Shown here one piece after another: positions 1-7,640 of a stretch of 7,640 nt of DNA; the first letter of the stretch is position 1, and every line of letters starts with the position of its first letter. The notes beneath the pieces are model-generated. The model had not been told where the DNA came from and ran no database searches. It was given only the letters and a program-made list of their open reading frames with translations. Position numbers and translations under genes: made by a program. The stretch is from a virus (lineage: Monodnaviria > Loebvirae > Hofneiviricota > Faserviricetes > Tubulavirales): positions 1 to 7,640 of the IMG/VR virus record IMGVR_UViG_2651869748_000001, one strand, 5' to 3'.

Positions 1-1254
<1,254 letters not shown>

Positions 1255-2914: not shown

Positions 2915-4222
2915 CTAAACCTCAGCATGACGCATCAGGGCGCGACGATAAACAAAATAAAGACGAAAAACAGTAAGTGCATAAATAAAATATTCCAGAA
3001 CAGGCCTTAACAACAAATCATACGCTGATGAAAAATCGGATGTGTCAACTGTAAAATGTACAGTCCCAATCACCGGAAGATAAAATGAAAAATCAACCTC
3101 AAGTGGCTGAGCCCCATCAGAACGATGATTACCAGGAAAAAATAACTTGTCGAAATCAATAAATAACCACTCCTTAGGTAGCTTATCAATAAACTGAGAG
3201 ATTAAAGAATCATAATCATTTGATGAATCACCCGATTCATTTTTAACAATATCAGACAGCTGGTCATCAAAAGTATTCAGTGAATTATTTACATCAGCCT
3301 GAGAAAAAGAAAAGAAACTATTCAAATCATTCACTGAAACCCAAATACGCTGCAACCAGCCAAGAATATCACCAAGCCAGCCATCGCCGGAGGAACTGCC
3401 ACCGCCTGAGTTACCACCACCTGAGCTGCCGCCGCCTGAGTTACCACCACCTGAGCTGCCACCGCCTGAGTTACCACCACCGGAACTGCCACCACCTATG
3501 CCACCACCGCCAGAACTGCCACCGCCAGAACTGCCACCGCCAGAGCTGCCACCGCCAGAACTGCCGCCGCCTGAGTTACCACCACCGGAACTGCCACCAC
3601 CTGAGCTACCGCCATCCTCCTTATCATCGGAGAATGCAGGATCTACAGCAACTGGTTTCCAGTTGGCAGTACAAACCGTATCATCATCGGGATTACAAAT
3701 AAAAGGATTGCCGGTTGCCTCATAAATACACCCCTGCACATTAACATAACGGGTCCCGTCATCACCTTTATAAACACCAGGAAAAGTCATACCATCAAGA
3801 ACCGGACGAGAAAGACAAATCTCGTCAGTTGGCGGCTTATTATATTCAGGTGTCAAATCCCCCTCACCACCCTGAAAATCAAGAGTGCAGGTTTCCCACT
3901 CTCGCTTCTCTAAATCCCAGACTTTATATGCGGACCACCGGGCATGGACAAAAACCCCAACGGTGGAAGGCGCGCTAGACGAGTCTGATAGCTTACTACC
4001 GCAATAATGAATTATTCCGGAGCACGCGTCGTAACCACTGGAACCACAATAAATATGACCAGCTCCCCTGGCTAATTTAATCGATGCTCCCGCATCTGAA
4101 TAAGCTGTTCTGCAGTTGAAACGGCCAAAACACTGAACAAGCTTATCCGGATCTTCTTTCTCCTCAGCAAAAGAAAGCGAAGAAAAGAACAAAAACAGAA
4201 ACGGAAAAATAAGACGAATCAA
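2915..4222 (-). CDS. pIII-like adsorption / minor coat protein with Gly-Ser linker
   Basis: 435-aa ORF starting with TTG at 4220-4222, 7 nt downstream of AGGAG. Signal peptide (MIRLIFPFLFLFFSSLSFA|EE), Cys-rich N-terminal domain, 76-aa (GGGSS/GGGNS)n linker and hydrophobic C-terminal anchor. Position after the gVIII terminator matches Ff gene III. Confidence 0.8.
   Translation of the reverse strand: MIRLIFPFLFLFFSSLSFAEEKEDPDKLVQCFGRFNCRTAYSDAGASIKLARGAGHIYCGSSGYDACSGIIHYCGSKLSDSSSAPSTVGVFVHARWSAYKVWDLEKREWETCTLDFQGGEGDLTPEYNKPPTDEICLSRPVLDGMTFPGVYKGDDGTRYVNVQGCIYEATGNPFICNPDDDTVCTANWKPVAVDPAFSDDKEDGGSSGGGSSGGGNSGGGSSGGGSSGGGSSGGGSSGGGGIGGGSSGGGNSGGGSSGGGNSGGGSSGGGNSGGGSSSGDGWLGDILGWLQRIWVSVNDLNSFFSFSQADVNNSLNTFDDQLSDIVKNESGDSSNDYDSLISQFIDKLPKEWLFIDFDKLFFPGNHRSDGAQPLEVDFSFYLPVIGTVHFTVDTSDFSSAYDLLLRPVLEYFIYALTVFRLYFVYRRALMRHAEV
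3386..3613. repeat. Tandem 15/30-nt repeat encoding the (GGGSS/GGGNS)n linker of the pIII-like protein
   Basis: About 15 consecutive near-identical 15-nt units (plus strand ctgagttaccaccac / ctgagctgccaccgc and variants) between 3386 and 3613, translating on the minus strand to GGSSGGGSSGGGNSGGG... Confidence 0.9.
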
Positions 4223-4242: not shown

Positions 4243-4266
4243 TAAAAAAGCGCCCCGAAGGGCGCT
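4243..4266 (-). terminator. Rho-independent terminator downstream of the major coat protein gene
   Basis: Minus strand reads AGCGCCC-TTCG-GGGCGCT followed by TTTTTT: a perfect 7-bp GC-rich stem (4249-4255 pairing with 4260-4266), a UUCG tetraloop and a U-tract (4243-4248). It lies 16 nt after the gVIII-like stop and before the gIII-like RBS. Confidence 0.75.
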
Positions 4267-4281
4267 GTCGTTAAATAACTA

Positions 4282-4542
<261 letters not shown>

Positions 4543-4548
4543 TTAAAA

Positions 4549-4719
4549 TTAATTAACAGCATCGCTGAACATCCGGCAGACCAGAGTGAAAATAACACCA
4601 AGACCAAAGCCAAGAAGCCAGCAGACAATCCAGACATACAGAACGGCCCAGTAAAGCTCCCCGTCCTGTACGCCAGAATTCAGTGCGGATAAAACACCGC
4701 TGAAATCAAATTCAGTCAT
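4549..4719 (-). CDS. Small hydrophobic virion protein (gIX/gVII-like)
   Basis: 56 aa from ATG at 4717-4719 (MTEFDFSGVLSALNSGVQDGELYWAVLYVWIVCWLLGFGLGVIFTLVCRMFSDAVN) with one transmembrane-like helix. The ATG overlaps the upstream ORF stop (ATGACTGA), suggesting translational coupling. The ORF track's longer version would need a GTG start at 4750-4752 with no RBS. Confidence 0.45.
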   Translation of the reverse strand: MTEFDFSGVLSALNSGVQDGELYWAVLYVWIVCWLLGFGLGVIFTLVCRMFSDAVN

Positions 4720-4852
4720 AATAACGCTGAACAGTAATGCTTTGTGAGTCACAGGCGCGAATCAGTTTTATTCCGATGCCAAAACCTGAAGAAAATAAAA
4801 TCATTGCAGGCGCAGCAAATAAAACAAAGTTCAGAAAATCAGCGTCAGACAT
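4712..4852 (-). CDS. Small hydrophobic virion protein (gVII/gIX-like)
   Basis: 46 aa from ATG at 4850-4852 (MSDADFLNFVLFAAPAMILFSSGFGIGIKLIRACDSQSITVQRYYD), with AAGG about 8 nt upstream. Begins 5 nt after the stop of the 141-aa ORF. The alternative ATG at 4904-4906 lacks an RBS and would overlap the upstream gene by 50 nt. Confidence 0.45.
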   Translation of the reverse strand: MSDADFLNFVLFAAPAMILFSSGFGIGIKLIRACDSQSITVQRYYD

Positions 4853-4856
4853 ATCA

Positions 4857-5282
4857 TCAGCCTTTTTCTTTACCTGCGGGCAGCGCACCCAGCGGCTGAC
4901 CGTCAAAACGTTTCATGGAGCCGGAAATAAAACGATACCAGACACCATGACGTTCAGAGCCTGTCGACCATGAGTTAACATCCACCGTGAGATAAACAGG
5001 TTTGCCCTGCAAATCAGGACATGAATTAAAAAATTTAAAATCCTCCTCAGTACAGGAAAATCGCTCATGCTCCTCACGGCGGACTTTTAATTTTCGGTCC
5101 TCATACGGATAGGCAATAACAATGGCATATTTGGGTTTAGCCTCAGGGTTATAATGAGAACCCGTGGGCTTTAACTCCTCATCATTTATGACAGTGGCGT
5201 GAATAAAAAATCCCGCCATTGTCATACCTGCAGTAAAACCCTCAGGGGAAGGAAACGGAAAACTGTCATAAATTTGATTCAT
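4857..5282 (-). CDS. Hypothetical protein in the gV position (possible ssDNA-binding protein)
   Basis: 141-aa ORF, ATG at 5280-5282 with GAGGAG 8 nt upstream, starting 30 nt after the rep stop. The CDS call is solid; the function is inferred from position only (between rep and the small coat genes) and I recognise no motif. Confidence 0.6.
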   Translation of the reverse strand: MNQIYDSFPFPSPEGFTAGMTMAGFFIHATVINDEELKPTGSHYNPEAKPKYAIVIAYPYEDRKLKVRREEHERFSCTEEDFKFFNSCPDLQGKPVYLTVDVNSWSTGSERHGVWYRFISGSMKRFDGQPLGALPAGKEKG

Positions 5283-5312
5283 AAATCAGACTCCTCAATG
5301 TTAAAAATTCAG

Positions 5313-7407
<2,095 letters not shown>

Positions 7408-7451
7408 TTTTGAGATGTATGATGAGGTATGAAAAAACAGAGGGGATATAT

Positions 7452-7640
7452 ATGCCAACAAAGCACATAAACGATGTTTTATGGAGAAAGGTAGAGAAAG
7501 AAACTGTAAAAGTGGTAACAACACTGGCAATACCAGTAAAAGATACCAAAGTTTTAGAATGGATAATCGCAAAAGGACTGGAGTCTATAACAGAAGATGA
7601 CTACAGGAAATTTGCAAAGACGGATGCAACAAAAAAATAA
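7452..7640 (+). CDS. Small hypothetical protein, candidate transcriptional regulator of the phage switch
   Basis: 62 aa from ATG at 7452-7454, with GAGGGG 6 nt upstream, ending at TAA 7638-7640 (the ORF track starts earlier at 7410 with a weaker RBS). Divergent from rep, immediately downstream of the operator-like palindromes. AT-rich, lysine/glutamate-rich, and I recognise no family; the regulator role is inferred from context. Confidence 0.5.
   Translation: MPTKHINDVLWRKVEKETVKVVTTLAIPVKDTKVLEWIIAKGLESITEDDYRKFAKTDATKK

Follow-up and report, generated by a model that had tools for sequence, protein, structure and literature searches.

The Gly/Ser-coding tandem array at positions 3392 to 3613 (minus strand) is very probably the flexible tether of an adsorption protein, the g3p (pIII) of an E. 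coli prophage of the filamentous type (Inoviridae), a tether that changes length, marks module exchange, and breaks assemblies. The array lies in a stretch of DNA of 7,640 nucleotides, called the window below, and it encodes residues 204 to 277 of the protein, the variable part of the gene. From the N terminus on, the protein has a predicted signal peptide, a head domain with cysteines (D1), a second domain of the TolA-binding type (D2), an acidic spacer of eight residues, the tether, and a C-terminal domain.

Genomic context and domains of the g3p protein

The gene that carries the array encodes a g3p/pIII-type adsorption (minor coat) protein of 435 amino acids (2915 to 4222, minus strand), an identification that draws on the ORF list, Pfam and PDB matches, and gene order. 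Its start codon is TTG with AGGAG ahead of it, and RefSeq annotates the same ORF in relatives. By the ORF list, Pfam and PHROG, the genes around the array follow the order g8p-g3p-g6p-g1p-g4p. The g3p gene is thus flanked by a major-coat-like gene and by g6p-like, Zot/g1p, and secretin genes, as is typical of an inovirus g3p. The neighbors were assigned to phrog_1944 (g6p-like), phrog_2186 (g8p-like), and phrog_1675 (g1p), and Pfam Zot and Secretin were matched among them. An intrinsic-terminator-like hairpin of seven pairs, six of them G-C, lies between the g8p-like gene and g3p (4249 to 4266, minus strand; AGCGCCC-TTCG-GGGCGCT, then TTTTTT). The IKe record has a comparable stem-loop annotated between genes VIII and III.

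The region upstream of the array contains ten cysteines and two head domains, one of which has clear homologs. The N terminus is hydrophobic, ends in S-F-A, and is modeled as a helix at residues 5 to 17; its sequence, MIRLIFPFLFLFFSSLSFA (residues 1 to 19; 4166 to 4222, minus strand), reads as a predicted signal peptide and falls where a signal peptide of 19 residues is annotated in IKe g3p. D1 (residues 20 to 125; 3848 to 4165, minus strand) has six cysteines and had no match in the Pfam or PDB searches. It has at least four alleles among the relatives and sits where IKe g3p has its N-pilus-binding domain, and it is the putative primary-receptor-binding head. D2 (residues 126 to 195; 3638 to 3847, minus strand) has four cysteines and is a homolog of the TolA-binding N1 domain of Ff, IKe, and IF1 g3p. 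Residues 126 to 171 match Pfam Phage_Coat_A (PF05357) with 35.1 bits against a cut-off of 20.8, and residues 132 to 195 match the solved N1 structures of these phages with E values from 2e-13 to 7e-7 (1tol, 1.7e-13; 4eo1, 6.7e-12; also 2g3p and 2x9a). D2 also matches PHROG attachment-protein and virion-protein families. The acidic spacer AFSDDKED (residues 196 to 203; 3614 to 3637, minus strand) follows, and in the alignment it forms the conserved upstream edge of the array.

The C-terminal domain is a putative virion-tip domain and membrane anchor. It comprises 158 amino acids (residues 278 to 435; 2918 to 3391, minus strand), begins with SGDGWLGDILGWLQRIWVSVNDLN, and weakly matches the g3p-like PHROG 17820 (profile positions 317 to 435 of 442; E 7.4e-5). 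In a low-confidence model it has helices, then a beta-hairpin, then a long helix at the C-terminal end, the same order as in the C domain of f1 pIII (PMC10175506). The putative membrane anchor, PVLEYFIYALTVFRLYFVY (residues 407 to 425; 2948 to 3004, minus strand), was read from the sequence as a hydrophobic segment followed by a basic tail, and it falls inside a predicted helix at residues 394 to 434. By eye the anchor helix resembles that of IKe, but BLASTP of the C-terminal 66 amino acids against the IKe g3p C terminus gave no alignment, and the resemblance has no statistical support. The structure model of g3p is poor as a whole (mean pLDDT 40.9), and only residues of about 130 to 200 exceed 65. 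Residues 201 to 282 have no predicted secondary structure and a pLDDT of about 30. A Gly-rich linker between a receptor-binding head and a C-terminal domain is likewise typical of an inovirus g3p. The first-pass annotation had described an adsorption protein with a linker between a Cys-rich receptor-binding region and an anchor, and this description is supported by Phage_Coat_A, the N1 structures, the gene order, the upstream cysteines, and the weak PHROG match of the C-terminal domain.

By homology with the g3p of Ff and IKe, the C-terminal domain would be held with g6p in the virion tip, and the tether would let both head domains swing out from the tip. D1 may capture the primary receptor, probably a pilus, and D2 would then reach TolA in the periplasm.

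Structure of the tandem array

The periodicity of the array exceeds what its composition would lead one to expect, since its lag-15 autocorrelation (0.74) beats that of 5000 codon shuffles of the same stretch (0.47 +/- 0.03, maximum 0.62; z = 7.7). The value at the array is the maximum across the whole window, and the lag-30 autocorrelation is above it (0.82). Read on the coding (minus) strand, the array consists of one 12-nt GGSS unit and 14 units of 15 nt, which encode nine GGGSS, four GGGNS, and one GGGGI. The units stand head to tail, their length is a multiple of three, and there are no indels, as in VNTR-like repeats. Both searches place the array where it was first described: TRF reports 3396 to 3607 with a period of 15, 14.1 copies, 75% matches, 0 indels, and a score of 207, and a separate repeat search found 13 registers with a spacing of exactly 15 nt. 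The interval given earlier, 3386 to 3613, is 76 codons in frame, as had been claimed, and adds two residues, Ser-Gly, to 3392 to 3613.

The units are alike in protein and diverse in DNA. They had been called near-identical, and this is correct for the protein but not for the nucleotides, where the 14 full units are nine distinct 15-mers with a mean pairwise identity of 78%. Most of the DNA differences among them are synonymous. The longest exact repeat inside the array is 36 nt.

Length variation among relatives

The length of the tether varies among related prophages, and the reading frame is kept throughout. In the sample of 20 full-length relatives, linkers of the GGGSS type span 27 to 117 amino acids (27, 52, 71, 77, 82, 87, 97, 102, and 117). 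The first-pass annotation had expected such variation between isolates, and the single copy number everywhere that it had named as the contrary outcome was not found. A second linker type, with a 39-nt unit, spans 87 to 165 amino acids, and it reaches at least 194 in one gene cut by the contig end. In all 20 full-length arrays the frame is intact and the units at the two ends are the same.

The comparison of copy number among related prophages that had been proposed at the outset shows that lengths differ even in near-identical genes. Array length differs in six of eight gene pairs that have 0 to 3 differences over about 1080 flanking nucleotides. For example, L008 and L009 have no differences in 1095 flanking nucleotides and arrays of 291 and 351 nt, while the window and L007 have three differences in 1077 and arrays of 231 and 156 nt (all sizes being those of the array plus SGD). 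For isolates 700481, E300010, E200139, and JNE21-009 the recorded sizes are 81, 156, 351, and 291 nt. In unit-level maps the arrays share their ends and differ by one to two units duplicated or deleted in the interior. On the other hand, hypervariability over short times is not seen: three tandem prophage copies in one genome have the same g3p, and isolates from Gambia and Mozambique have identical g3p.

Head-to-tail units of 15 nt, arranged partly as 30-nt pairs, would lend themselves to slippage during replication or to unequal homologous recombination. Either process would add or remove whole units and always keep the reading frame, a mechanism to which the comparative pattern points. The length of the tether therefore changes faster than the rest of the gene gathers point substitutions.

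Module exchange at or near the array

The distribution of alleles among the relatives suggests that heads and anchors have been recombined near the array. The C-terminal domain has three alleles (X, Y, and Z), and head allele A-a is found with all of them, which implies recombination at or just after the array. Each of the two array types is also combined with several C alleles. The L005 and L016 genes share an identical D2 (100%) and arrays of the same length that are 98.5% identical, but the identity of their C domains is 65%. Homology to two prophages (H48 and H49) in megablast ends at window positions 3392 and 3396. Tandem and multiple prophages were found in one genome, which would give opportunity for exchange. 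These allele combinations are consistent with a swap of head and C-domain modules at the array together with the conserved stretch that follows it, where the crossover would probably lie.

One tentative possibility, compatible with a tether, is that the main evolutionary role of the array is to act as a recombination joint for head/anchor swaps between co-resident prophages. The allele combinations and homology breakpoints described above favor it. However, all alleles have a conserved start of the C domain, 24 residues long, so the crossover may lie there and not in the array, and for L005 and L006 nucleotide homology reaches about window position 3293, roughly 100 nt past the array. In addition, the combinations of D1 and D2 vary as well, and exchange is therefore not confined to the array.

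Tether length and receptor geometry

Adaptive tuning of the tether to receptor geometry appears unlikely to explain its length. In such a scheme length would follow the pilus type, the width of the periplasm, or the repeat length of host TolA domain II, and variation would be a form of bet-hedging for host range. The wide range of lengths (27 to at least 194 amino acids) and the faster change of length than of the flanks are in keeping with tuning. So is the repeat of E. coli tolA itself, which has units of 15/18 bp and 8 to 16 natural copies, and whose alteration lowers susceptibility to phage fd (PMC3477136). Under neutral slippage, however, lengths would likewise vary widely among genes with one allele combination, and a naturally longer Gly-rich region of IKe is described as having no observed fitness effect (Bruno and Bradbury 1997, as cited in PMC7307601). 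A broader proposal unites tuning with exchange: the array would be a selected evolvability device, which provides rapid and reversible tuning of head reach, perhaps tracking the TolA repeat or pili, along with a shared crossover site for head/anchor reshuffling. We regard this proposal as quite doubtful.

Assembly breakage

The array interrupts draft assemblies; the first reading of the DNA had anticipated collapse in short-read data, and what is seen is breakage of contigs. Among 13 representatives of database clusters, eight proteins are incomplete and end at the start of the linker or within it, and in the two contigs that were checked the g3p gene runs to the last base. Draft contigs end inside the array, for example in GCA_018923865.1 and GCA_053701955.1, probably because the repeat exceeds what short reads resolve. 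Some of the recorded differences in copy number could be assembly errors in public records. It is nevertheless improbable that assembly artefacts account for the copy number in the window and for some of the differences between relatives, even with drafts that demonstrably break in the array. All full-length arrays are in frame with the same terminal units, and many reads could be placed uniquely among nine distinct 15-mers with no exact repeat longer than 36 nt. Variants also recur independently, including the L005 and L016 arrays already described and two pairs of equal genes (L002 and L003, L010 and L018).

Antisense reading frames and nucleic acid structure

The open reading frames on the plus strand are by-products of the repeat. 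A proline-rich frame beginning MPPPPELPPPEL (3498 to 3725; 75 amino acids) and a His/Cys-rich one containing HRLSYHHLSC (3280 to 3702; 140 amino acids) lie opposite the array. That either one is a real overlapping gene has next to no probability, although they stay open for 75 to 140 codons. Any array of the form (GGY GGY GGY AGY TCN)n can have no stop codon in two of its three antisense frames, and in the relatives the open stretches track array length exactly. Furthermore, the minus-strand frame has recognizable protein domains on either side of the array, and all other phage genes of the window are on the minus strand. The proline-rich antisense ORFs had been called spurious from the start, and their growth and shrinkage with the array agree with that.

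A tandem repeat in a surface-protein gene, together with the fold of the coding strand as DNA (z = -2.0), would suit a phase-variation switch for g3p or a structural role, as DNA or RNA, in the single-stranded genome. This reading is extremely unlikely. The centroid has essentially no structure, and folds at least as good came from 7 of 200 shuffles. With a unit that is a multiple of three and 20 of 20 relatives in frame, no on/off switching results. A phase-variable contingency locus was rejected on the grounds that every full-length allele is in frame, and a structural role of the array DNA was rejected on the grounds of the fold.

Implications for annotation and engineering

As the variable tether of g3p, the array affects how these E. 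coli prophages are annotated and typed. With short reads, gene III is split or truncated at the array, and gene III variants that differ only in the number of units are over-counted. The array is also a boundary between exchangeable head and anchor modules. Such a boundary is of use to those who retarget filamentous phages by engineering, and it helps to trace the mosaic history of these prophages.

Comparison with known systems

Megablast of the whole window against a phage reference collection gave no match, and a scan of 185,579 species-representative genomes with the g3p head found no relative. The rest of the genome is distant as well: g1p shares only 30.7% identity with f1 g1p, and its best matches among phage g1p proteins have 34.6% identity over 58% of its length. 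The paper on Erwinia PEar phages (PMC7697814) makes no mention of linker repeats.

The pIII of Ff phages (M13, fd, and f1) has a homologous N1 domain, and Gly/Ser repeats (EGGGS and GGGS) follow N1 and precede the C domain, as they do here. Ff pIII has two linkers in the arrangement N1-G1-N2-G2-C, whereas the present protein has one linker and its TolA-binding domain comes second. The linkers of f1 pIII are flexible and invisible by cryo-EM (PMC10175506).

IKe g3p has nearly the same size (434 amino acids compared with 435) and the same order of signal peptide, head, TolA-binding domain (about residues 130 to 195), Gly-rich linker, and C domain. D2 is 38 to 43% identical to the TolA-binding domains of IKe and I2-2 (Lineavirus), with 38% identity to IKe g3p residues 120 to 215 and a structure match to IKe (4eo1). 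In contrast, D1 and the C domain have no BLAST similarity to IKe. The IKe linker is about 50 amino acids long and irregular (GGDT, GGGST, and GGGSS; TRF periods 12, 15, and 27), while the array here has 15 regular units. Other differences are the Rep protein, which is of the GPA type here, unlike that of IKe, and the life cycle, since the relatives of the window are prophages and IKe does not integrate. Membership in Lineavirus (IKe and I2-2) was rejected; only the TolA-binding domain of g3p is recognizably similar, and the whole window had no megablast match in the phage collection. IKe has itself been reported to vary in linker length (Bruno and Bradbury 1997, cited in PMC7307601).

The host gene tolA offers a model for change in the g3p array. 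It has an in-frame 15/18-bp repeat of polymorphic copy number in an envelope-spanning protein that acts in the same infection pathway, and contraction of this repeat in E. coli is RecA-dependent and occurs at about 7e-5 (Zhou et al. 2012, PMC3477136). The tolA repeat is in a host gene, however, and it encodes a Lys/Ala-rich alpha-helical segment as opposed to the Gly/Ser coil of g3p.

A close parallel in behavior is UPphi, a group of Enterobacterales prophages that, like the phage of the window, are filamentous prophages of E. coli, and that integrate in tandem (PMC7307601). Gene III is the most variable gene of UPphi, with 95 variants in 229 genomes, and the variation is mostly in the number of Gly-rich repeats that link the N- and C-terminal domains (Shapiro and Putonti 2020, PMC7307601). 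The repeat unit of UPphi is GGGES, as opposed to GGGSS and GGGNS here, and the structural genes of UPphi share about 70% identity with those of IKe and I2-2. Identity with UPphi was rejected, given that the g3p studied here aligns to that of IKe or I2-2 over 18 to 19% of its length (43% identity for IKe) and g1p is about 31 to 35% identical to known phages. The array provides one more example of a known rule, in prophages of a group that the searched phage reference collection lacks, and opens no new question. Variation in the number of repeats in gene III had already been published for UPphi and IKe, and because the same behavior is documented for related phages (PMC7307601), the finding made here is correct but ordinary.

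Structure of the Gly/Ser array

The gene for the g3p-type adsorption protein, a 435-aa ORF on the minus strand (2915-4222), contains a highly regular Gly/Ser array. At 3396-3607 TRF calls a single strong array with period 15 and score 207 (14.1 copies, 75% matches, no indels), and a repeat search found 13 registers with a spacing of exactly 15 nt. On the coding strand the array consists of GGSS followed by 14 five-residue units (nine GGGSS, four GGGNS and one GGGGI), corresponding to g3p residues 204-277 (3392-3613). The first-pass annotation had placed a tandem repeat at 3386-3613, and it is present; this span is the array plus two residues, or exactly 76 codons. The lag-15 autocorrelation is 0.74, the highest value in the entire window, whereas codon-shuffled versions of this stretch give 0.47 +/- 0.03 (z 7.7). 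The lag-30 value is 0.82, indicating that part of the array is arranged as 30-nt pairs. The description of the array as about 15 near-identical 15-nt units overstated the similarity at the DNA level, as the 14 full units comprise nine different 15-mers, which average 78% identity in pairwise comparison. Exact repeats within the array reach 36 nt at most, and its Gly codons are GGT and GGC only. No convincing structure was found when the coding strand of the array was folded as DNA.

The domain matches and layout place the array between the receptor-binding heads and the expected virion-tip anchor domain, as had been proposed from the sequence alone. Ahead of the array, residues 126-171 match Pfam Phage_Coat_A (35.1 bits, cut-off 20.8), and a PDB search aligned residues 132-195 with TolA-binding N1 domains of known structure. 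These include 1tol (M13 g3p N1-TolA fusion, E 1.7e-13), 2g3p and 1g3p (fd g3p), and two chains named 'Attachment protein G3P', 4eo1 (70 aa, E 6.7e-12) and 2x9a (65 aa, E 6.8e-7). The aligned residues of 4eo1 are identical to residues 135-195 of IKe g3p, translated from IKe gene III. The other PDB hits, to artificial (G4S)n linkers of fusion proteins, reflect array composition only. A g3p-like PHROG matches on both sides: its C-terminal part aligns with the last 158 residues of the protein, after the array (E 7.4e-5), and its N-terminal part with the TolA-binding domain, D2. The AlphaFold model is poor (mean pLDDT 40.9, confident for D2 only) and was taken as weak support only. It predicts no secondary structure at residues 201-282; in the C domain it shows helices, a hairpin and, at the end, a long helix. 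A cryo-EM study of f1 (PMC10175506) describes the pIII linkers as flexible and not visible, and a C domain made up of helices and a beta-hairpin.

Two ORFs on the opposite strand of the array, one Pro-rich (3498-3725) and one His/Cys-rich (3280-3702), were rejected as genes. Stop codons close the in-phase antisense frame, where TCA of the coding strand reads as TGA, while the other two frames stay open across every array of this kind. The open stretches lengthen and shorten with the array in relatives, showing that they are by-products; the proline-rich ORFs had rightly been called spurious.

Length variation and module exchange in gene III

The array changes faster than its flanking sequence. 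Gene III was compared among 11 prophage loci from E. coli genomes, eight complete IMG/VR loci and the window. Linkers of the GGGSS type (array plus SGD) have lengths of 27, 52, 71, 77 (window), 82, 87, 97, 102 and 117 aa. Arrays at L010, L012 and L018-L024 are of a second type, with the 13-residue (39-nt) unit GSGSGGSSGSGGS; they are 87-165 aa long, and at least 194 aa in L021, whose contig stops within the array. The reading frame is kept in all arrays compared. Array length differs in six of eight gene pairs that have 0-3 differences over about 1080 flanking nt. With no flanking differences, the arrays are 291 and 351 nt in L008 and L009, and 300 and 495 nt in L019 and L020. With three differences, they are 231 and 156 nt in the window and L007, and 261 and 306 nt in L005 and L006. 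The expected variation in linker length between isolates is thus observed. Repeat number among related prophages, a comparison proposed in the first-pass annotation, differs as well; the prophage of strain 700481 has 5 units versus 15 in the window, despite 99.1% overall identity.

Unit maps, in which each distinct 15-mer was coded as a letter, show that the first and last units are conserved and that one or two units are gained or lost internally. For example, the L009 array is the L008 array with two separate two-unit insertions. Over short scales, however, the array is not hypermutable: the same g3p (WP_216334014.1) is present in all three tandem prophage copies of E. coli TD225-C4 (L011, 2414713-2447197), and g3p is identical between isolates from Gambia and Mozambique.

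Segments of gene III have also been exchanged. Clustering at 93% nucleotide identity gave four alleles of the N-terminal head domain D1, two of D2 and three of the C domain (X, Y and Z). One D1/D2 combination, A-a, occurs with all three C alleles, and several C alleles are seen with each of the two array types. Between L005 and L016, identity is 100% over D2 and 98.5% over the array but drops to 65% in the C domain, and the homology of the window to two prophages stops at 3392 and 3396, the edge of the array. Because conservation across all alleles extends over the first 24 C-domain residues, the crossover may have occurred either within these residues or in the array.

Contigs break at the repeat. 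A search of a large protein collection with the 203-residue g3p head found 13 cluster representatives, all from E. coli, on contigs of 0.5-4.5 kb; 12 are labelled partial by a source. Eight of the 13 end within the linker or where it begins. In two that were looked up, the gene reaches the last base of the contig (170-910 of 910 and 3054-3788 of 3788). The array is of practical relevance to assembly and gene III typing.

Genome organization and relatives

The long ORFs of the window are all on the minus strand and are arranged as in filamentous phage. They encode a GPA-type replication protein (5313-7313, PF05840), a 141-aa protein in the gene V position (4857-5282), a major-coat-like protein (4282-4542), g3p, a g6p-like protein (2550-2912), the Zot/g1p assembly ATPase (1335-2546) and a secretin (1-1224). 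Small minus-strand ORFs lie between the gene V-position and major-coat-like genes. Between the latter and g3p is a strong terminator-like hairpin (4249-4266, minus strand; 7 pairs, 6 of them G-C, then TTTTTT), with AGGAG and the TTG start of g3p downstream; the IKe record has a stem-loop annotated at the same place. A separate Ser/Gly-rich low-complexity stretch lies in the secretin (residues ~133-168, window ~721-828, minus strand), where TRF reported no tandem repeat. An ORF at 7410-7640, open past the window end, is on the plus strand, opposite to all phage genes, and could be a candidate regulator. The corresponding region of AST205 (L012) has small plus-strand hypothetical genes between prophage copies.

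The g3p of the window is rare. Its gene is matched in 15 of 5426 complete E. coli genomes, with at least 80% of it covered in only four, and no relatives were found among 185,579 species-representative genomes. Some part of the window is matched in 42 of the 5426 genomes and at least 80% in 11, and a handful have prophages 96-99% identical over most of its length. Megablast of the whole window against a phage collection gave no match. The listed g3p carriers are mostly human stool isolates from Africa, Asia and Mexico. One of the three TD225-C4 copies has a split Zot gene.

Replication and structural modules reassort among E. coli filamentous prophages, since the replication module (4864-7310; Rep and the 141-aa protein) is 99% identical to that of prophages with wholly different structural genes. 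One example, L014, has a DUF2523 protein, a shorter Zot and an unrelated 537-aa protein in the g3p position (4641-6254, minus strand), with a (GT/GS)n repeat of ~85 aa ahead of its C-terminal part. In some relatives a gene annotated as 'IS110 family (RNA-guided) transposase' adjoins the Rep gene (L001 10387-11352; L014 9456-10421), and these prophages are located at yoaA/yoaB or ybiB/hcxB. The tandem prophage of AST205 adjoins hipBA and has no IS110 gene, and it is the variant lacking this gene that the window matches beyond 7313. The presence or absence of the IS110 gene and the different sites suggest that the same phage body uses two different integration routes.

Comparison with known systems

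A Gly/Ser linker is a textbook feature of Ff pIII. The g3p of IKe shares the domain layout of the window protein, and the residue numbers nearly coincide: a signal peptide, an N-terminal head, the TolA-binding domain, one Gly-rich linker and the C domain. The TolA-binding domain is 38% identical to IKe g3p residues 120-215 (BLASTP), while the IKe linker is shorter and irregular compared to the array. A naturally longer Gly-rich region in IKe had no observed fitness effect, according to Bruno and Bradbury (1997) as cited in PMC7307601. Among 229 UPphi prophages, the copy number of a Gly-rich repeat in gene III is the main source of variation (PMC7307601). The window was rejected as a UPphi because its structural genes are far from IKe and its unit is GGGSS/GGGNS rather than the GGGES of UPphi.

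The E. coli tolA repeat provides a worked example of how 15-bp in-frame repeats change. It has 15/18 bp units in 8-16 natural copies, and its contraction is RecA-dependent, at about 7e-5 (PMC3477136). Overall, the observation of the array is confirmed and the interpretation in the first-pass annotation is supported. Variation in gene III Gly-rich repeat number is already known from related phages and will be of little surprise to a specialist. Repetitive Gly-rich tethers recur in adsorption proteins that have no recognisable sequence similarity to each other.
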